A stretch of 64,000 bases of DNA from a virus (Duplodnaviria > Caudoviricetes), in IMG/VR virus record IMGVR_UViG_3300031993_000033, positions 40,705-104,704 of that record. The stretch is one strand, 5' to 3'. The notes under the pieces are model-generated. The model searched no databases and was not told where the DNA came from. It saw nothing but the letters and a program-made list of their open reading frames with translations. Each line of letters opens with the position of its first letter. The first letter of the stretch is position 1. A program made the position numbers and the translations under genes. This document shows positions 6,205 through 41,228 of this stretch, piece after piece.

Positions 6205-6348
6205 AGCAACAATAACTTATATGACAGGCAGAATGAGAGGTATGACGGTATATCGTCTAACTTCTGATAAATTTGAACGTGGAATGATGTATAACGATTC
6301 GCTTACAAACAATCGGTTTTATGTTGATTACGTTACAAAGATAGGAGA

Positions 6349-7134
6349 ATGATTATTATGACAAAGGAAAAATATCTTACACTTATAAACAAGGCTATTG
6401 AAAATCTGAAAGATAATGATGACAACTACGGACAGACACCGATAGACTTCATGAGGAAAAACGGAGTTAAGTCTACAGATAATATGACAATATTCCTTGA
6501 CAGTGTAGGAGCTTACCTTGAGGAAATCAGGTGCGGACTTCTCGCAGACATGGAAGCAGAAGAAGCAAAGAAGAACGGAAAATCAAGCGTGTTATCTACT
6601 ATCAAGAAGTTATGCAACGACAATTACAAGACACAACAAAGTGTAAGACCACAACTTGCATATGCGAATTATGACGAAGCGGAAAAGAAGTATATTACGG
6701 TTAGCGGTTATTGGCTCATTATGTCGGAAAATCCTGCTGGTATGGTGGAGATGCCTGAGAACGTCAAGAAGGATATAAAAGAACCTTTAAAGTATAGACA
6801 GTGGATTCCTAACAAGTATGAGATGCACAAAGTTGAACTGCCGACACGGGCAAAGATCAGCACTTACTTGAAGGCTCGTAAAGCCACAAGGAATAAGCAC
6901 GACAAAACATGGGACAGGCTTGTATTTGAGGACTTTGCCGTTAAGGGAGAATGGCTCGAAGCAGCTATGAAGATAACAGGCTCATCGGAAATTTATGTCA
7001 AGGACAGTATTCACGCTCTGCTTATGGAAGGCAATGGCTACACTATGGTGCTTATGCCCATAAAGAATAAAGAGACAGACAAGAATACTGGCGAGGAAAA
7101 GCATATGCCGATTACAAATTTTGAGGTGGTATAA
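6349..7134 (+). CDS. hypothetical protein
   Basis: 261-aa ORF with AGGAG RBS. Confidence 0.7.
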   Translation: MIIMTKEKYLTLINKAIENLKDNDDNYGQTPIDFMRKNGVKSTDNMTIFLDSVGAYLEEIRCGLLADMEAEEAKKNGKSSVLSTIKKLCNDNYKTQQSVRPQLAYANYDEAEKKYITVSGYWLIMSENPAGMVEMPENVKKDIKEPLKYRQWIPNKYEMHKVELPTRAKISTYLKARKATRNKHDKTWDRLVFEDFAVKGEWLEAAMKITGSSEIYVKDSIHALLMEGNGYTMVLMPIKNKETDKNTGEEKHMPITNFEVV

Positions 7135-7892: not shown

Positions 7893-8897
7893 TTGATGAC
7901 CATGTTGGGAAATTTAAAAGAAACTTGTAGAGTAATTGACATCTCACAGAGACAACAGTCGGAAAATTCTTTTGACTTTGATTTTGACAGCCTTATTCCA
8001 GACGTAGAACAACTCACTCCCGAAGAAGAACAGGCGATAGCCGAAGCCGAGTCAAAACTCAAAGAACGTCAGGGCTTTGACTGTATGCCGATTGGAATAT
8101 TGAATGAGCTTCTGAGATATTTTCTTGACAGGCGTGACTTTCGATCTGTATTCTGGATTGTCTTACAGGCAAATACTGGACTGAGATATTCCGATGTTAT
8201 CAAATATCGGCGCATTGATTTGTTGAATGAGCATAATAAATTCAGAGAGTCCATTCTTGAACAAGAACGGAAAACTGGTAAGCAGAGAGTCAACTTTATA
8301 AATGATGCTATCAAAATAGCTACACTAATGCTCATATGGGAAAATCCCAGTATAAAGCCTTTAGACTTGATGATTAGCTCTGAATACAATGATAAGGCTC
8401 ACAACAAAGGCTATGAAAAAGAAACTTATATCAACGCCAATGGCGAAGAACGTTGTTTGAGAGTGAACGGAAAATACGTTTATAAGCTCGATGAAAACGG
8501 AAACAAAATTCCGAAGGCTCTTGGTCGCAGTCGCAGTTGTACTATAATGCGCGATGCTATGGTAGAAGGACTTGGTATATGCCTTAAAAATGATGGTCGC
8601 ACTAAGAACAATGACGGAGCTTATTTGAAGCTGGCAAGTCATTCCATTAGAAAAGCATACTCCGCTGGTGTTGTAGAGCAGTTTGAAAAGATGTTTGACA
8701 GCAATGAGGCTTACGCACACGCAGCGGCAATGGAACAGTTGCAGTACGATCTTAACCATTCAAGCAGATCTATGACTTATCATTATATAGGCGATTATGC
8801 CGAGACAAAACGCAAAACAAACATGAATATGAATCTTGGTTTGGAAATTTTGAAGCCATATTTTGAGGCGGAACGAAAAAGATATTTAGAGAGGTGA
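7893..8897 (+). CDS. tyrosine recombinase (catalytic domain, no obvious arm-binding domain)
   Basis: catalytic set intact: TGLR, KTGK, HSIRK, LNHS, TYHY. Confidence 0.85.
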   Translation: MMTMLGNLKETCRVIDISQRQQSENSFDFDFDSLIPDVEQLTPEEEQAIAEAESKLKERQGFDCMPIGILNELLRYFLDRRDFRSVFWIVLQANTGLRYSDVIKYRRIDLLNEHNKFRESILEQERKTGKQRVNFINDAIKIATLMLIWENPSIKPLDLMISSEYNDKAHNKGYEKETYINANGEERCLRVNGKYVYKLDENGNKIPKALGRSRSCTIMRDAMVEGLGICLKNDGRTKNNDGAYLKLASHSIRKAYSAGVVEQFEKMFDSNEAYAHAAAMEQLQYDLNHSSRSMTYHYIGDYAETKRKTNMNMNLGLEILKPYFEAERKRYLER

Positions 8898-24244: not shown

Positions 24245-24315
24245 AGTAATCAGAGGGTAAGGCAACTCGCCCTCTGGTATTTTTTTACATTTTAAAGTCT
24301 AAAAGGAGTGTTAAT

Positions 24316-25140
24316 ATGGAGTTTAAAGTTGGAGACAGAGTGCGTTATGTAGTTCAAAGAGACATTGATAATGTCGAAGTTGGTGAAGTAGGCATTATTC
24401 GTGGCATTTCTTCAGGTGGTGATTATGCAGTTGATTTTGAAGAAAGTGGTTATAAACATAGCTGCGGTGGTCTTTGCCAAAATAATCATGGTTGGTGGTG
24501 TAGGGGAGATACGCTTGAACCAGTAGCTATTAGATCCGTGTTATTCCCGAATGTGGAGTATGTGTTTAATGAAAAACAAGCCGAAGAATATGCAGAGAGA
24601 TTAAATAAAGAGTTAGCAGAACATTTTAACGCATTTTCAAACGACGGTATATCGGCAAAAAATGGAGGTAAAAATTCAATGAAATTTACATTTTATGTAA
24701 CAGAAGGAACGAGAGTGGATAAGAGTTGCAACGGCACTATCCCGACAATGACAACAAATATTGAGTTGCTTAGTGGCAATGTTTTTGATAAGGTCACTAC
24801 CGTTAAGGGTTCTGCAACTTGTGATAAGGCAGATTATGATGAAAGACAGGGTGTTCTTGAAGCTCTTGCGAATGCAATTTGTGGAGGTAATTTTTACAAA
24901 GCATACGCCGAAGCTGTCAAATTGAATAGATGTGAAGATGAATTATCACGCACTTGTATCTACTGTGGCAAGGTTCTTAATACAGTAGAAGAAAAACAGG
25001 AACACGAAGCATGGCACGTTGAGCGTCGTAAGGCAAGACACGAGCGTTATCTTCTCCGCAAGAGAGCTAAAGAAATTGCCTTTGAAGAAGCAGCTCAGAA
25101 GCTTGCAAAAGAGATAATCGCAGAGGATAACAAGAAGTGA
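24316..25140 (+). CDS. hypothetical protein (SH3-like N-terminus, C2H2-like C-terminus)
   Basis: FKVGDRV start; CIYC...HEAWH; internal RBS and ATG at 24679. Confidence 0.6.
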   Translation: MEFKVGDRVRYVVQRDIDNVEVGEVGIIRGISSGGDYAVDFEESGYKHSCGGLCQNNHGWWCRGDTLEPVAIRSVLFPNVEYVFNEKQAEEYAERLNKELAEHFNAFSNDGISAKNGGKNSMKFTFYVTEGTRVDKSCNGTIPTMTTNIELLSGNVFDKVTTVKGSATCDKADYDERQGVLEALANAICGGNFYKAYAEAVKLNRCEDELSRTCIYCGKVLNTVEEKQEHEAWHVERRKARHERYLLRKRAKEIAFEEAAQKLAKEIIAEDNKK

Positions 25141-25445
25141 TAGTCTTAATATTTTCAATTCTCGGCAGCGTATTCAGCTTGGGCGGTAATGTACTTATCG
25201 CCCATAAGAAACGCTCTGGCTGGTGGATATGGATATTAGGGAACATAGCGTGGTTGGGAGTAAACTTTCTCGGCACTATGAATATTCCTATGGTAGTAAT
25301 GTATATATTCTATCTTATCACAAATATTGCAGGGTATATTGAATGGGGTAGGAAGTCCGATCTACACAAAGCCATTGATGAATGCAACGAGAAATTAAAG
25401 AATAAACCTAAGTTTGACTTTTCTGATGTAAAGACAAGACATTAA
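25137..25445 (+). CDS. PnuC-like small membrane protein
   Basis: three hydrophobic helices, KKRSGWWIWILGN motif. Confidence 0.55.
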   Translation: MIVLIFSILGSVFSLGGNVLIAHKKRSGWWIWILGNIAWLGVNFLGTMNIPMVVMYIFYLITNIAGYIEWGRKSDLHKAIDECNEKLKNKPKFDFSDVKTRH

Positions 25446-25654
25446 AGTTTGATTTTATTCGACTTGTAAGGCGTTATCTCAATGCTTAAATCGTCTGCCA
25501 CCTTGTATTTATACAGCTTGTGAAGTTCACCATCGGCTGTAAATCCGCAGACGAAGTGGTTTTCAAGCCAATACTTGCCTTCCTCTATCAGCAGAGGATA
25601 ACCTAAATCGCTCCACATTTGAATCATCTCTTTGAAGATGGGTTGCATTATCAT
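25442..25654 (-). CDS. inverted 5' part of the PAPS-reductase-family gene
   Basis: own GAAAGGAG RBS; ends NKIKL inside the inverted repeat; joins the 25789 ORF in frame if inverted. Confidence 0.75.
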   Translation of the reverse strand: MIMQPIFKEMIQMWSDLGYPLLIEEGKYWLENHFVCGFTADGELHKLYKYKVADDLSIEITPYKSNKIKL

Positions 25655-25714
25655 TCTCCTTTCACTGGGAAATGCCTATTCTACGTTGCTAAATTGGCAA
25701 TAAAATCAAACTTT
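25444..25714. repeat. 16-bp perfect inverted repeat bounding an invertible segment
   Basis: AAAGTTTGATTTTATT (25444-25459) and AATAAAATCAAACTTT (25699-25714). Confidence 0.9.
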
Positions 25715-25788
25715 CGCAACAATTTGAGACTTGGCAGCAGACCATAGCAAGGCTCAGTGGGGAACTTGATGACAGAATTGCAGACTCA

Positions 25789-26781
25789 ATGAGCGTTATC
25801 AACAAGGCGATACAGGACTATCCGAATCACAAGAAAGTAGTATTTACATCTACAGGTAAAGACAGCATGGTAACTCTTGATTTGGTAACTCGTGTTTTAC
25901 CTGATGTGGGTGTTCACTTCAATAACACTACTCTTGATACAGGCGATACCTATAAAATGGTAAAAGCTCATAAAGACTGGACAATTATCAATCCCGACAT
26001 TGGGTTCTACAAATACATCTTCAAAGAGCATTTCATTCCCACAAGATTCAGCCGTGGTTGCTGTACAGTATTCAAGGAAGGTAAGAGCATAGAATACTTT
26101 GATAGTGAACCACAGATGCTTTTCTTTATGGGCGTGAGAAATGACGAATCAGCGCAGAGAGCAGACCGACAGGATATATCGCACAATCCAAAGTGGGGAG
26201 ATCGTGATTGGTTTAGTTGCTTGCCTATAAGAAAGTGGAGTGAGCTTGACATATGGCTCTATATTCTTAAAAACGGCATTGAAATAAATCCTAAATACCG
26301 TAAGGGATATAGTAGAGTTGGGTGTTCAGTGGCTTGCCCGTATTACACCAAGTACACTTGGGTATTAGATAAGTATTGGTATCGCATGGCGTATGACCGA
26401 TGGCGCAGCATCCTGCGCAAAGTCTTTGCGCAGGAGAATCGCTGGACTAAGCTGAATTGCACTATAGACGAATATGTAAACGGAGCTTGGAATGGTGGTT
26501 TACTTAGACCAGAACCAACAGAAGAAGTTGTGACAGAGTTTATGGAGCACAAAGGACTTGACAACTATGATACGGCTTTGCAATACTTCAACAAGACTTG
26601 CGAAGTGTGCGGTAGGAACGTAAGACAGAATGATGTGCTTGCAATGAATCTGAAACTTCTCGGCAGAGGAACAAGCAAGATTTACTGCAAGAAGCATCTG
26701 AAAGAACTTTGTTGCTTAGATAATGAGGCATGGGATAATGCAGTAGCAGACTTTAAGAGGCAAGGCTGTGCTTTGTTTTAA
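25789..26781 (+). CDS. PAPS reductase / DndC-like family protein (3' part; frame open from 25699)
   Basis: STGKDS PP-loop, RGCCTVFK, GVRNDES..R, YSRVGC..CP. Confidence 0.85.
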   Translation: MSVINKAIQDYPNHKKVVFTSTGKDSMVTLDLVTRVLPDVGVHFNNTTLDTGDTYKMVKAHKDWTIINPDIGFYKYIFKEHFIPTRFSRGCCTVFKEGKSIEYFDSEPQMLFFMGVRNDESAQRADRQDISHNPKWGDRDWFSCLPIRKWSELDIWLYILKNGIEINPKYRKGYSRVGCSVACPYYTKYTWVLDKYWYRMAYDRWRSILRKVFAQENRWTKLNCTIDEYVNGAWNGGLLRPEPTEEVVTEFMEHKGLDNYDTALQYFNKTCEVCGRNVRQNDVLAMNLKLLGRGTSKIYCKKHLKELCCLDNEAWDNAVADFKRQGCALF

Positions 26782-26849
26782 ATTTACAAGACAACAAATT
26801 AGCGGTAATGATTAACCAAATAAAAGTTGAGTTTTAAGGAGGAATAATA

Positions 26850-27986
26850 GTGAGTATTAAAGGCTACAAAGTGTTCAACCCTGACTGGACTTGCAGAGGT
26901 TTTCAGTACGAGGTTGGCAAAACTTTCAAGCACGATGGCAATATTGAGATGTGTGGTGCAGGATTTCACTTCTGCCGGAAGGTCTCAGATTGCTTCAATT
27001 ATTACGGCTTTAACAGCAACAATAAGGTTGCAGAAGTCGAAGCTATCGGTAATGTTGAGACTAAAGGCGATAAATCCGTCACAGATGAAATCGTAATTTT
27101 AAGGGAGCTTACTTGGCACGAGGTTCTTGATTTAGCCAATACAGGAAAGGACTGTACGGGCAATCGCAACAGCGGTAATCGCAACAGCGGTAATTGCAAC
27201 AGCGGTAATCGCAACAGCGGTGATTACAACAGCGGTAATTGCAACAGCGGTAATCGCAACAGCGGTGATTACAACAGCGGTAATTGCAACAGCGGTGATT
27301 ACAACAGCGGTGATTACAACAGCGGTAATTGCAACAGCGGTAATCGCAACAGCGGTGATTACAACAGCGGTAATTGCAACAGCGGTAATTGCAACAGCGG
27401 TGATTACAACAGCGGTAATTGCAACAGCGGTAATTGCAACAGCGGTGATTACAACAGCGGTGATTACAACAGCGGTAATCGCAACAGCGGTGATTACAAC
27501 AGCGGTAATTGCAACAGCGGTGATTACAACAGCGGTGATTACAACAGCGGTAATTGGAACAGCGGCAATCGCAACAGCGGTGATTACAACAGCGGTAATT
27601 GCAACAGCGGCAATTGGAACAGCGGTGATTGGAACAGCGGTGATTTCTCTACTGGCTTTTTTAATTCAATTGAGCAACCGTTATGCGCTTTCAACAAGCC
27701 ATTAGATATTGACAGAAATGCTTTTAATAGCAACTTAGCTGTAAGAGCTATGGATTGGAAGTATGAGAACGACTGGTGGATTTACAGTGAGAATATGACG
27801 GCGGAAGAAAAAGAAGCACATCCTGAACACGAAACAACTGGCGGTTATCTCAAATCGGTTGATTTCAAAACAGCTTGTGGTATTATGTGGGATAATATGA
27901 CAGAAGATGAAAGAGTTGCAGTCAAGGATATTCCTAATTTTGATGCAAGTGTGTTTGAAGAAATTACTGGCATCAAGGTTGTTTGA
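26850..27986 (+). CDS. pentapeptide-repeat (NSGxx) phage protein
   Basis: GYKVFNPDWTCRGFQYEVG N-terminal domain, about 32 NSG-(NR/NC/DY/NW/DW) repeats. Confidence 0.85.
   Translation: MSIKGYKVFNPDWTCRGFQYEVGKTFKHDGNIEMCGAGFHFCRKVSDCFNYYGFNSNNKVAEVEAIGNVETKGDKSVTDEIVILRELTWHEVLDLANTGKDCTGNRNSGNRNSGNCNSGNRNSGDYNSGNCNSGNRNSGDYNSGNCNSGDYNSGDYNSGNCNSGNRNSGDYNSGNCNSGNCNSGDYNSGNCNSGNCNSGDYNSGDYNSGNRNSGDYNSGNCNSGDYNSGDYNSGNWNSGNRNSGDYNSGNCNSGNWNSGDWNSGDFSTGFFNSIEQPLCAFNKPLDIDRNAFNSNLAVRAMDWKYENDWWIYSENMTAEEKEAHPEHETTGGYLKSVDFKTACGIMWDNMTEDERVAVKDIPNFDASVFEEITGIKVV
27160..27645 (+). repeat. 15-bp coding tandem repeat
   Basis: AACAGCGGY followed by AATCGC, AATTGC, GATTAC, AATTGG or GATTGG. Confidence 0.95.
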
Positions 27987-35930: not shown

Positions 35931-37136
35931 ATGATTGCGAACAGAGTAGAACAACAGATTATCCGCAGGACGCATTCGTTGTGGGGTGTCATTGACGAAA
36001 TGTGCTTTAATGCGAAGAATCTTTATAATTATGCTAATTATATTATTAGGCAGGAATATATTAATAACAAACGATATGTCTCATACAAAGAAATGAACAT
36101 CAATCTCAAAACACATCAGCAATATAAAGATTGTATGAGCCAACCTGCGAATTGTGTTCTGCGTTTGCTTGATAAGAATTGGAAGTCATTTTTTAAAGGT
36201 TTGAAAGAGTATGAAAAGAACCCAAAGAAATTTCTCGGCAGACCTCAAATGCCAAAATATCTCAAGAAAGATGGTAGATTCAATTGGATGATACCAAACA
36301 ACGCTTGCTATTTTGAGAATGGGGAACTGAAATTTAGAGTGCTCAAATTGCAATCCGTTAGGTGGAAATGCAGATGTGTCGGCAGGTTAATTCAAGTGAG
36401 ATTTGTCCCAAAGGGTTGTGTATACGTCATGGAGATAGTATCTCAGATTGAAGTTCCTGATGCTATGTCCGATAACAAGCGTATTGTAGGAATTGATTTA
36501 GGTGTTAATAATCTTGCTACAACTTCAAATAATATTGGTGAGCAGCCATTTATTATTAACGGTAGAGGATTAAAGAGCATAAACCAATTCTATAATAAAC
36601 GCAGATCTGAACTACAATCTAAATTACCCAAAGGTCAGTTTTGGAGTAAACAACTTGAACAAATAACTTTCAAGCGGTTCAACAGAGTCAAGAATTATAT
36701 GCACCACGCAAGCCATTACATAGTCAAATGGTGTGTACAACATCAGATAGATACTTTAGTTGTAGGACATAACGACGAGTGGAAACAGAACCTTAGAATG
36801 GATAAAGTAAATTCGCAGAACTTTGTTTTTATTCCTTATAAAATGTTGATACAACAGCTTAAATATAAATGTGAAGATGTAGGCATTGAGTTTGTTGAAA
36901 CTGAAGAAAGTTATACAAGTGGAACAAGTTTTTTAGATGGAGAACTACCGTGTAAAGAAAATTACAATAAAAGACGGAGAGTTAAAAGAGGGTTGTTTCA
37001 AGCAAATAATACTCTAATCAATTCAGACGTAAACGGCAGTTTGCAGATAATTAGAAAGGTATTTCCAGATGCTTTTAGCTATGGGATAGAGGTGTGTCTA
37101 ACACCTACTATAATTAATGTAGTGAATGGGTGCTAA
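35931..37136 (+). mobile_element. tnpB: solo TnpB-family RNA-guided nuclease (IS1341-like, no TnpA)
   Basis: KNLYNYANY, GIDLGVNN, EESYTS, NSDVNG. Confidence 0.85.
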
Positions 37137-40679: not shown

Positions 40680-41228
40680 ATGAAACCATTGATTGCGTGT
40701 TTGGGAGTCTCAGGCTCTGGCAAAACAACCTTAGCTAATAAACTCGCTAAAAAGTATAGCTATTCTGTTTTGAAATCTTATACAACAAGACCACCGAGGG
40801 AGAATGATGAAGCCGATCTGACTTCGCATACATTTTGCTCAATAGAAGAAGCTGCATTTTTTGCCGACCAAAAGCAGATAGTGTGCTCGACTTGGTTTGC
40901 TGGGAACTTCTACTTCAGCACTCAGAGCCAGCTCGACAGTTCCGACCTTTATGTGTGCGACGTGAACGGATTGAAGGACTTATATCGCAACTATCGTAAT
41001 CGCCCGATATTGAGTATCTATCTCGACGTTGATAGTTCTATCGTGGCTGACCGTATGAACAAGCGTGGCGACAGTGACGAAGAAATTTTCAAGCGTTTAC
41101 AGCACGACGCAGAAGCCTTTAAGGATGCAAGAGATTATGTGGATTTTGTGTGTGACAATAGCACTCAAGACAAGTGCAACGAAATCTGTGAATTTATAGA
41201 TATGTTATTCAGATATTACAGAGGGTAA
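40680..41228 (+). CDS. guanylate kinase-like dNMP kinase
   Basis: GVSGSGKT, SYTTRPPR. Confidence 0.8.
   Translation: MKPLIACLGVSGSGKTTLANKLAKKYSYSVLKSYTTRPPRENDEADLTSHTFCSIEEAAFFADQKQIVCSTWFAGNFYFSTQSQLDSSDLYVCDVNGLKDLYRNYRNRPILSIYLDVDSSIVADRMNKRGDSDEEIFKRLQHDAEAFKDARDYVDFVCDNSTQDKCNEICEFIDMLFRYYRG

Follow-up and report, generated by a model that had tools for sequence, protein, structure and literature searches.

A probable inversion switch at the start of a PAPS-reductase-family gene in a large phage, found in the OFF orientation

The window analyzed here is a stretch of 64,000 nucleotides (positions 40,705 to 104,704 of IMG/VR record IMGVR_UViG_3300031993_000033) from the 104.7-kb genome of a rumen phage (Caudoviricetes). 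It contains a PAPS-reductase-family gene whose 5' end lies reversed in front of the remainder (Table 1). The first ATG of the gene body as found, at 25789, has no Shine-Dalgarno (SD) sequence and gives a 330-aa open reading frame (ORF). The plus frame is open from 25693, reading NKIKLSQQFETWQQ... into this ATG, and is closed upstream by a stop at 25690 to 25692. The minus-strand ORF in front of the gene body ends in ...YKSNKIKL, with its TAA stop supplied by the left flank. A preliminary description had reported this as an isolated minus-strand ORF of 70 aa with a strong ribosome-binding site, and this held, with the SD sequence AAAGGAG (approximately 25656 to 25662) placed 7 nt ahead of the second ATG. 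The 102-aa ORF upstream resembles PnuC-type NMN transporters over their C-terminal third only. No match was found in the GenBank phage collection, either by megablast with 24300 to 27900 or by tblastn with the 70-aa ORF, and there is no cultured relative in that collection.

Table 1. Features of the inverted segment and its surroundings (positions in the window)
Feature	Position	Strand	Description
Upstream neighbor	25137..25445	+	102-aa ORF; stop codon inside left site
Left recombination site (putative)	25441..25459	.	Full palindromic ATTAAA-GTTTGA-TTTTAT (25441-25458); holds the 16-nt left arm; overlaps TAA stop codon of upstream ORF
Stand-alone 70-aa ORF	25442..25654	-	N-terminal domain plus NKIKL; 68 aa from second ATG (25648)
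Invertible interior	25460..25698	-	239 nt, OFF orientation; leader, SD, and codons 1-63 of the PAPS-reductase-family gene
Right arm	25699..25714	.	Within coding sequence; codons N-K-I-K-L, residues 64-68 of intact protein
Gene body	25715..26781	+	Residues 69-423 of intact protein

The interior is bounded by a perfect 16-nt inverted repeat with the arms AAAGTTTGATTTTATT (25444 to 25459) and AATAAAATCAAACTTT (25699 to 25714), which is the longest inverted repeat within 3 kb across the whole genome. The longest inverted repeats in five Markov-shuffled control genomes were 13 to 15 nt, and the length of the repeat by itself is therefore only marginally beyond chance. No further switch with similar arms was found elsewhere in the 104.7-kb genome, and its other repeats of at least 13 nt were within the range of the shuffled controls. 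The core site of a tyrosine recombinase consists of two inverted binding arms around a 6- to 8-bp spacer, which is identical in the two partners. The left and right sites have AAA, the spacer, and TTTTAT in common, which fits this architecture with an identical spacer. The right arm is a partial site only, ATAAAA-TCAAAC-TTTCGC, consisting of the spacer and one half-site. Occurrences of the site motif in the window numbered 35, versus 1.05 expected. The preliminary description had reported the 16-bp repeat, which was found again, and had read its arms as two copies of a boundary site with the same spacer; this held for the left arm but only in part for the right arm.

Inverting 25460 to 25698 in silico produced the in-frame 425-aa fusion that had been claimed, or 423 aa from the better-placed second ATG. 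The flipped ORF was identical to the full-length homolog P0001 at 402 of 423 residues (95%). Taken separately, the minus ORF aligned to P0001 residues 1 to 68 (96%) and the plus frame to residues 64 to 423 (95%), indicating that NKIKL is encoded by both arms. Most of the 120 best homologs are approximately 410 to 430 aa long. The homology check on the fused protein suggested in the preliminary description was thus positive, with contiguous, ungapped full-length homologs that include the N terminus. In the window sequence, no alternative N terminus is joined to the gene body in the OFF state. A shufflon or cassette-swap type of system was rejected, as there is no alternative homologous cassette, the tails of OFF-state fragments in relatives are unrelated, and the plus frame is closed immediately ahead of its open stretch. 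A scan of 25000 to 27000 for consensus promoters and terminators gave counts at or below shuffle expectation and identified no promoter; the scan was therefore uninformative.

The gene product matched PF01507 (PAPS_reduct) with 92.4 bits against a cutoff of 22.5, as well as phrog_424. The PP-loop motif STGKDS is nearly invariant in the family. The gene product also contains a C-terminal Cys-rich region and four invariant Cys residues; the latter would be compatible with an Fe-S enzyme. The best fold matches in the PDB were CysH and APS reductases. The PAPS/APS-reductase, FAD-synthase, and TtuA matches in this search were generic and restricted to the core, and nothing in it pointed to a role for the N-terminal domain, which comprises approximately 60 residues and is extra relative to CysH. 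In the AlphaFold model, the in-gene arm falls within the sole low-confidence linker (residues 61 to 74), between a confidently predicted N-terminal domain and the PP-loop core. Assimilatory CysH was rejected as an equivalog on the NCBIfam scores (TIGR00434, 50.9 versus 165; TIGR02057, 39.1 versus 254), and it is also disfavored by the extra N-terminal domain and the C-terminal Cys-rich region. The label "DndC-like" given in the preliminary description held only at the superfamily level (PF01507), and the NCBIfam matches at an E value of ≤1e-3 included no DndC model. The enzyme is a PAPS-reductase-family protein that probably modifies DNA or nucleotides, although the substrate is inferred. A literature search returned nothing on the function of the phage PAPS-reductase family.

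The segment occurs naturally in both orientations, and the breakpoints coincide with the repeats. The ON orientation is present in seven close loci (L004/L059, L054, L057, L058, L060, L062, and L063), and both repeat arms are kept perfect in these ON relatives. The OFF orientation is present in the window, in L005/L056 (two names for one contig), and in a contig of the public run X2. Contigs across the ON junction were found in runs X3 and X4. An exact two-arm pattern scan of viral contigs recovered L056 alone; the other relatives came from protein-based scans. The runs X1 to X4 were available as assembled Logan contigs, which drop minor variants, and the coexistence of orientations within a sample could not be judged. 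The preliminary description had proposed read mapping across the junctions. The evidence here is from contigs only, and the source run, X1, yielded a single contig, in the OFF orientation, so that there is no evidence for both orientations within one population.

The preliminary description had also raised the possibility of a misassembly, in which the segment was placed in the wrong orientation by the assembler. In favor of such an artifact, the genome is metagenome derived and is represented by one contig from its source run. However, the 16-nt arms are below the usual k-mer length of assemblers, the OFF orientation was seen again in independent assemblies (L005 and X2) and the ON orientation in at least seven others, and OFF-state ORFs occur in many unrelated assemblies. 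An assembly artifact is thereby all but excluded.

The backward-N-terminus state was found in at least five lineages of the phage gene family, that of the window included. The N terminus lies reversed just upstream of the gene in L079, L082, L083, L130, L131, and L043/L134, and a flip between the local arms restores ORFs of 411 to 437 aa in all of them. The arms themselves differ between lineages. In L007/L064/L065 and in L092 they are perfect, 16 to 18 nt long, and of different sequence; in the L011 clade the in-gene arm lies at codon 93 and in another reading frame; and in L043 both arms are within the gene. The noncoding upstream arm covaries with the coding arm between lineages. We additionally found 22 clusters of stand-alone proteins of 50 to 117 aa, some of them on contigs of 48 to 100 kb. 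All of the clusters that were read (13 of 22) start with the N-terminal domain of the gene. In the nine closest clusters, homology stops right after NKIKL (NEIKL in two) and is followed by eight different unrelated tails. The gene-body tree requires four orientation changes, three of which are forced by well-supported branches, and the OFF locus L079 is separated from ON loci by a branch length of 0 to 0.001, their bodies being almost identical. In the clade of the window, the OFF genomes (the window and L005) are sisters in this tree, and one inherited event is therefore enough for that clade.

This last result bears on a one-off, unprogrammed inversion at a chance repeat in an ancestor shared by the window, L005, and the X2 strain, which would have left a pseudogene and no switch. 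In addition to the sister relationship, such an event would be consistent with the OFF orientation alone being found in contigs of X1 and with a repeat that barely exceeds the lengths found in shuffled genomes. However, the arms are perfect in ON relatives, and the segment and the gene body are undecayed, with 95 to 96% identity, open frames, and a full ORF upon flipping. Four or more other lineages show similar events whose arms and positions differ, and there are many OFF-state fragments with differing flanks. We consider a one-off inversion very unlikely. Since equivalent pieces are found in one or the other orientation in related phages, the locus is best read as a recurrent on/off inversion switch, set to off in the window. 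The preliminary description had left a choice between a phase switch and an accident at a cryptic site; the switch is favored by the full-length homologs, by the two orientations with conserved arms, and by the recurrence with differing arms.

The arms of all switches except those of L130 and L131 (AATCCAATCTTTCA) follow the plan [xTxAAA][6 nt][TTTTAT], with identity over AAA, the spacer, and TTTTAT. The site plan of the window recurs in four further switches, giving five independent switches. A switch of the same design, with a 17-nt inverted repeat, lies inside a gene for a C5 DNA methyltransferase in the L007 clade, a sister lineage. This gene is broken in L007, and L079 reads through the left methyltransferase junction in the unbroken orientation, with the contig ending inside the flipped segment. 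Genomes of the L007 clade carry more than one switch. An integron-like cassette model was also considered for a 1-kb indel beside the left arm (L011 versus L082), and it gained no support because the insert lacks a second flanking site.

The genome of the window encodes an Xer-like tyrosine recombinase, located at approximately 22.66 to 23.69 kb in G000, which matched PF00589 with 62.8 bits against a cutoff of 27.1. As read from the sequence, its translation contains SGMRKAE, HALRH, GW, and IQIY, fitting the catalytic R...HxxR...(H/W)...Y; it matched models of FimB/E-type invertases only marginally (E value of approximately 1e-3). Homologs with 62 to 89% identity were present in five of the eight other repeat-bearing relatives tested, and none of six genomes without the repeat had a close homolog (best match, 46%). 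The three remaining repeat-bearing genomes, all of the L011 clade, gave only partial matches of 22 to 24% identity. This co-occurrence is confounded by relatedness. A second, divergent tyrosine-recombinase-like ORF of 334 aa (7893 to 8897) was found in all relatives tested. Because G005 carries this ORF but no repeat, the ORF does not track the switch and was rejected as the invertase. A serine invertase of the Hin/Gin/Cin type was likewise rejected, as PF00239 was unmatched in the 104.7-kb genome while control genomes did match. The phage Xer-like recombinase is the likely invertase, but this is inferred from partial co-occurrence only, and its recombination activity is itself an inference.

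It remains possible that the switch is real but is driven otherwise, by a host recombinase, by the 7893-8897 protein, or by short-homology recombination or template switching between the repeats. The three repeat-bearing genomes without a close Xer-like homolog, the arms of L130 and L131 that deviate from the site plan, and the presence of the 334-aa ORF in every relative tested are in line with another driver, and the AT-rich palindromes may instead be regulatory sites. However, xTxAAA-N6-TTTTAT is common to the five independent switches with identity centered on the spacer, close Xer-like homologs are absent from the repeat-less genomes, and the 334-aa protein is present in the repeat-less G005. 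Repeats of 13 to 18 nt are short for efficient homologous recombination, which counts against homology-driven flipping.

The statement in the preliminary description that the gene is switched off rests on inference from the missing SD sequence at ATG 25789, without expression data. Since the 330-aa ORF retains an intact catalytic domain, loss of the enzyme in the OFF state is likewise only inferred. Alternatively, the inverted state could be a second state that is functional in its own right, yielding the 68-aa domain and the 330-aa body as two proteins whose activity or regulation is altered. In support of this, the 68-aa ORF has a strong SD sequence in both orientations and is predicted to fold as a confident separate domain, and the 330-aa ORF retains the whole PAPS_reduct domain with an ATG start. 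In contrast, this ATG lacks an SD sequence and the Met is not conserved in other clades, OFF fragments elsewhere run into unrelated tails of varied length, and for L043 and the methyltransferase switch the break caused by flipping lies inside the gene. A second functional state is therefore unlikely.

We prefer to read the locus as a "partial intergenic inverton," a programmed inversion switch acting on a phage PAPS-reductase-family gene. We consider this likely; its anatomy, the exact in-frame restoration, the two orientations in close relatives, and the independent recurrence in other lineages are shown. In the proposed mechanism, one site would lie at the stop of the preceding ORF, immediately in front of the gene, and its inverted partner in the flexible linker that follows the N-terminal domain of 60 residues. 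Recombination between the two sites would turn 271 bp comprising the leader, the SD sequence, and codons 1 to 63. The 423-aa enzyme would be made in the ON state; in the OFF state the gene start would be reversed, leaving a 68-aa minus-strand N-terminal fragment and a 330-aa catalytic body without a ribosome-binding site. That crossover takes place in the 6-nt spacer of the xTxAAA-N6-TTTTAT sites, by the phage's own Xer-like recombinase, is an inference that could as well prove wrong as right. Bet-hedging over a DNA- or nucleotide-modification function beside the phage methyltransferase island is an inferred purpose, which we offer tentatively and lean slightly against.

Bacterial partial intergenic or gene-altering invertons (Milman et al. 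2023, PMC9881135; Chanin et al., PMC10028968) resemble this locus in their short repeats, one arm of which is in the gene, in a flip that alters the gene product, and in the occurrence of both orientations among genomes. Those surveys covered bacterial and a few archaeal genomes, and the majority of the loci found exchange alternative homologous domains, in the manner of shufflons and hsdS. In contrast, the phage switch has no alternative cassette, is a plain on/off device for the 5' end of an enzyme gene, and has been reinvented at different codons across lineages. RecV of Clostridioides difficile and FimB/FimE at fimS of E. coli represent multi-locus switches in which one tyrosine recombinase flips promoters or leaders in bacterial chromosomes. 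The phage locus is similar to these systems in its short inverted repeats, a putative tyrosine recombinase encoded away from the switch, a gene-start inversion for on/off control, and, in the L007 clade, more than one switch per genome. It differs in that the inverted piece includes coding sequence and in that the recombinase, whose role is inferred, is Xer-like.

Phage Mu Gin and P1 Cin (Van de Putte and Goosen 1992, cited in PMC13501310) likewise represent phage-encoded, programmed inversion producing two phage subpopulations. These are serine invertases acting with an enhancer and Fis on 3- to 4-kb segments with alternative tail fiber genes that set host range. The present genome, in contrast, has no serine recombinase, and the segment is 271 bp and belongs to an enzyme gene beside a DNA methyltransferase island. 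Bacterial phase-variable restriction-modification and methyltransferase systems (epigenetic invertons, PMC7672463) are similar in their inversion-driven heterogeneity of modification functions; however, they shuffle specificity subunits and serve host defense or regulation, whereas here a virus would vary its own modification genes. The putative viral invertons of TPMM (PMC13501310) are likewise inverted stretches of viral contigs, in some cases inside coding sequences, and unlike ours they are read supported. Of these 16 viral candidates, one is illustrated, in a Microviridae capsid gene, and no conserved family, recombinase, or link to modification genes was reported there. Our literature search found no paper on invertons controlling phage modification genes.

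Phase variation by inversion is a classic bet-hedging device of bacteria, and in phages it is, to our knowledge, essentially not known beyond serine-invertase switches of tail fiber host range. The present design differs from those in that the coding start of an enzyme gene is flipped, probably by a tyrosine recombinase, which has hardly been described in phages. The switch is conserved and has been repeatedly reinvented over several lineages of gut and rumen phages of approximately 100 to 170 kb, and its target genes sit with DNA methyltransferases. A bolder reading, which we regard as no more than possible, is that a group of large gut and rumen phages phase-vary their own DNA modification genes one at a time and that the same sites double as crossover points. 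An Xer-like recombinase and spacer-addressed xTxAAA-N6-TTTTAT sites would act on the PAPS-reductase-like enzyme and on C5 methyltransferases, and each burst would contain differently modified genomes as a hedge against classical or modification-dependent restriction in hosts. The approximately 35 gene-junction sites would also serve as addressed crossover points for cassette exchange between coinfecting relatives. In practice, a sizeable fraction of assemblies will have such genes listed by gene callers as truncated or as short orphan ORFs. If the target is DNA modification, the virus side of the restriction arms race would also switch stochastically, and this would change the reading of phage epigenomes, of host range, and of metagenomic "pseudogenes."

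The window spans positions 40705-104704 of a 104,704-bp viral genome record with direct terminal repeats, and the runs that contain this genome come from bovine gut or rumen. Inverted-repeat arms enclose a stand-alone minus-strand ORF of 70 aa next to a 330-aa plus-strand ORF (coordinates are in the table). The 70-aa ORF has AAAGGAG 7 nt ahead of its second ATG. On the plus strand, a frame that is open from 25693 crosses the right arm and continues into the 330-aa ORF. At spans of up to 3 kb, the genome has no inverted repeat longer than this 16-nt pair. Taken alone it is weak evidence, as shuffled genomes already give repeats of 13 to 15 nt. The stop codon of the 102-aa ORF falls within the left recombination site. 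Similarity of this ORF to PnuC-type NMN transporters is confined to their final third (profile positions 113-174 of 175), and it may be a piece of a gene or a minimal PnuC with three helices.

The best 120 homologs are mostly about 410 to 430 aa long. The 70-aa ORF corresponds to residues 1-68 of P0001, the closest full-length homolog (423 aa), with 96% identity, and the plus frame from 25699 corresponds to residues 64-423 with 95% identity. These ranges overlap, and therefore the codons for N-K-I-K-L are encoded in both arms. Flipping 25460-25698 in silico yielded a single ORF of 425 aa (423 aa when started at the second ATG, which has the better spacing), and its product was identical to P0001 at 402 of 423 positions without a gap. 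The preliminary description had proposed this repeat, the minus-strand ORF and an in-frame 425-aa fusion with contiguous full-length homologs, and these claims held; homologs without the 70-aa N terminus, which would have refuted it, were not the case for P0001. Its "DndC-like" label is supported only at superfamily level (PF01507), with no DndC model among the NCBIfam matches; the protein also falls short of the CysH equivalog cutoffs.

We refer to the orientation with the 5' segment forward and the gene intact as ON and to the reversed orientation, that of the window, as OFF. Among close relatives (90 to 96% DNA identity in the gene body), both arms were present in every locus reaching both arm positions; the L054 contig stops before the in-gene arm. 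The orientation was ON in L004/L059, L054, L057, L058, L060, L062, and L063 and OFF in L005/L056, a 99-kb genome. A run from a second bovine study (X2) contained a contig of an OFF relative, and ON junctions were present in contigs of runs X3 and X4 (bovine and goat, in the order listed); in X4, a joint between 25444 and 25715 is explicitly marked "opposite strands." Both orientations exist among related phages, as differences between genomes in contig data. An apparent inversion produced by misassembly, a worry of the preliminary description, is all but excluded, because the 16-nt arms are shorter than assembler k-mers and both states recur in independent assemblies; the support from L005/L056 and X2 comes from contigs, not reads.

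Among about 130 related loci scanned, four further lineages had the N-terminal piece directly upstream of the gene body but on the other strand: L079 (L007 clade; its protein is 56% identical to P0001), L082 and L083 (L011 clade), L130 and L131 (two human-gut contigs), and L043/L134 (the second gene copy of a 173-kb phage). In every one, a flip between local inverted repeats gave a 411- to 437-aa ORF with the canonical N terminus. On the maximum-likelihood gene-body tree, the OFF state requires four changes, and well-supported branches force three of these. L079 is separated from ON loci by a branch length of only 0 to 0.001, indicating that its flip was very recent. The protein database also contained 22 clusters of stand-alone 50- to 117-aa proteins, and all 13 inspected start with the N-terminal domain of the gene. 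The nine nearest to the window share sequence only as far as NKIKL (NEIKL in two), after which eight different unrelated tails follow; several fragments lie on 48- to 100-kb contigs. Judged by sequence, these fragments represent genes called in the OFF state, and their genomic backgrounds are many and varied. One of them, P0127, is deposited at NCBI under a "Chitinophagales bacterium" MAG as a hypothetical protein; its 48-kb contig probably comes from a phage and was binned together with bacterial sequence. L036 and L043 belong to the same 172,909-bp virus record, which has two copies of the gene, one of them intact.

The upstream arm is noncoding, yet it tracks the coding arm across clades, with the in-gene arm at different codons; shuffled controls gave repeats of about 7 nt (maximum, 13). 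More distant relatives (e.g., L006 and L061) had no repeat at the gene, which may have been lost or never present. Read from outer to inner, the arms fit the plan xTxAAA, 6-nt spacer, TTTTAT, with L130/L131 as the sole exceptions, which may point to a recombinase of different specificity or to an isolated event. Identity between partner arms spans AAA, the spacer, and TTTTAT. The outer half-sites of the L011 clade, which are mismatched, remain with their flanks in both states, and the crossover is therefore inside the common 13-nt core. This layout is what a tyrosine-recombinase core site would be expected to show; for comparison, the central region of Xer dif sites is 6 bp long. Also in the L011 clade, a 1-kb indel with a 280-aa ORF abuts the left arm, and no second site was found flanking this indel, the one beside a switch that was examined.

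Features of the switch loci and associated genes (window coordinates unless a locus or genome is named)
Feature	Position	Strand or codon	Arm sequence	Remarks
Boundary motif sites	792-62171, e.g., 12753, 24679, 26820, 30123, 34697			Mostly at gene junctions
334-aa ORF	7893-8897	plus		phrog_216 "integrase" match
102-aa ORF	25137-25445	plus		PnuC-type match
70-aa ORF	25442-25654	minus		Between arms; all neighboring genes plus-strand
Inverted-repeat arms	25444-25459 / 25699-25714		AAAGTTTGATTTTATT / AATAAAATCAAACTTT	Perfect 16 nt, 239 nt apart
330-aa ORF	25789-26781	plus		PAPS_reduct (PF01507), phage family phrog_424; domain and phrog match
DUF7666 protein	26850-27986	plus		15-nt repeat array, 27084-27500
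TnpB-type protein	35931-37136	plus		Ends methyltransferase island
PF00589 recombinase	G000 (whole genome), about 22.66-23.69 kb			Outside window
Window clade arm		codon 64	AATAAAATCAAACTTT	
L007 clade arm		codon 66	CACAATAAAATCAAGTTT	
L092 arm		codon 62	CAATAAAATAAAGTTTT	
L011 clade arm		codon 93	AATAAAATCAACT	Different reading frame (I-K-S-T-L)
L043 arms		about codons 20 and 75		Both within gene; inverted segment fully intragenic
L130 / L131 arms	L130:2150-2453, L131:152-461		AATCCAATCTTTCA	Off the ATAAAA-type plan; OFF-state gene
L011-clade indel	L011:1964-2962 vs L082/L083:2178-2184			
Second switch, L007	6048-6064 / 6334-6350		AAAACTCAATTTTATTT	17-nt inverted repeat, same plan; inside C5 DNA methyltransferase gene, between motifs I and IV
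Second switch, L079	3590-3873			

A complete palindromic site, ATTAAA-GTTTGA-TTTTAT, includes the left arm. Against an expectation of 1.05, the window has 35 occurrences of the degenerate motif WTDAAA-N6-TTTHAW. Whole-genome counts were 37 in G000 and 29, 15, 12, and 4 in the relatives G001, G002, G003, and G005 (controls, 1 to 5), dropping in step with the presence of an Xer-like recombinase; G005 has neither that recombinase nor the repeat at the gene. Many sites have the same spacer in G000 and G001. Apart from the inversion pair, no two sites in G000 share a spacer; with 35 sites, however, unique spacers are already expected by chance. The switches show that sites of the xTxAAA-N6-TTTTAT plan recombine when their spacers match. 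The earlier view of the pair as the best direct evidence for recombination holds for such pairs and is not extended to the other junction sites, which may be recombination or regulatory sites.

No serine recombinase was found in the whole genome. The single PF00589 tyrosine recombinase has SAM-like N-terminal domains, the R / HxxR / W / Y residues, and weak Xer-type NCBIfam matches well under equivalog cutoffs. Of eight genomes tested from other relatives with the repeat, five had homologs with 62 to 89% identity, and of six genomes without the repeat, none did (best match, 46%); three L011-clade genomes had at most a 22 to 24% partial match. We infer that this Xer-like enzyme is the best invertase candidate, with the caveat that co-occurrence is confounded by relatedness. 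A second, divergent tyrosine-recombinase-like ORF of 334 aa (motifs TGLR, HSIRK, and HSS...Y; no Pfam match) was found in all relatives tested, including one without the repeat, and its distribution therefore does not follow that of the switch.

In the L007 clade, a C5 DNA methyltransferase gene contains a second switch built on the xTxAAA-N6-TTTTAT plan. In L007 this gene is broken and the PAPS gene is ON; L079 is the reverse at both switches, with only the left junction of the unbroken methyltransferase orientation visible, as its contig ends inside the segment. In the window, a methyltransferase island 2 kb downstream of the PAPS gene encodes an EcoRI-type adenine methyltransferase, two N6/N4 and two C5 methyltransferases, and a radical-SAM protein. 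The island ends with a TnpB-type protein (OrfB_IS605 plus a Cas12f1-like TNB domain). The long array in the DUF7666 gene encodes the pentapeptide NSGN/NSGD and aligns with that of L005 in many overlapping registers.

The AlphaFold model of P0001 (pLDDT, 90.6) predicts a confident N-terminal domain of one helix and four strands (residues 1-60), a low-confidence linker containing the in-gene arm (residues 61-74), and then a long helix and a PP-loop core from residue 108. Its fold matches were PAPS and APS reductases, FAD synthase, and TtuA, and STGKDS and four cysteines (184, 185, 272, and 276) are invariant or nearly so. A role in nucleic acid or nucleotide modification is suggested solely by the neighborhood and the parallel methyltransferase switch; the substrate is unknown.

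The analysis shows the anatomy, exact gene restoration, both orientations, recurrence, and arm covariation; mixed orientations inside a single population are not among these results. Of the proposal that inversion switches the gene off, the inversion held. That the OFF state would make no enzyme is inferred from sequence alone: no Shine-Dalgarno sequence precedes the ATG at 25789, other clades do not conserve this Met, and the tails of OFF fragments are unrelated to one another. Recurrence, both orientations, and covarying arms fit a switch rather than an accidental event; reversibility within one population is inferred. The Xer-like recombinase may exchange strands in the 6-nt spacer, a step that we can neither favor nor discount.

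Among described systems, bacterial partial intergenic or gene-altering invertons come nearest (PMC9881135, PMC10028968). RecV and FimB/E, single tyrosine recombinases that flip sets of small switches, are the closest working analogy. In contrast to these systems, the switch described here sits in a phage genome, has no alternative cassette, targets an enzyme gene beside methyltransferases, and has been rebuilt at different codons across lineages. The classical phage inversions (Gin and Cin) differ in using serine invertases, absent from this genome, and in switching tail fibers. A 2026 methods paper mentions "potential viral invertons" and no more (PMC13501310), and our literature searches turned up no description of this system. 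For the phage, the switch might serve as bet-hedging over a modification function, a purpose that we infer only tentatively and would sooner doubt than assert.
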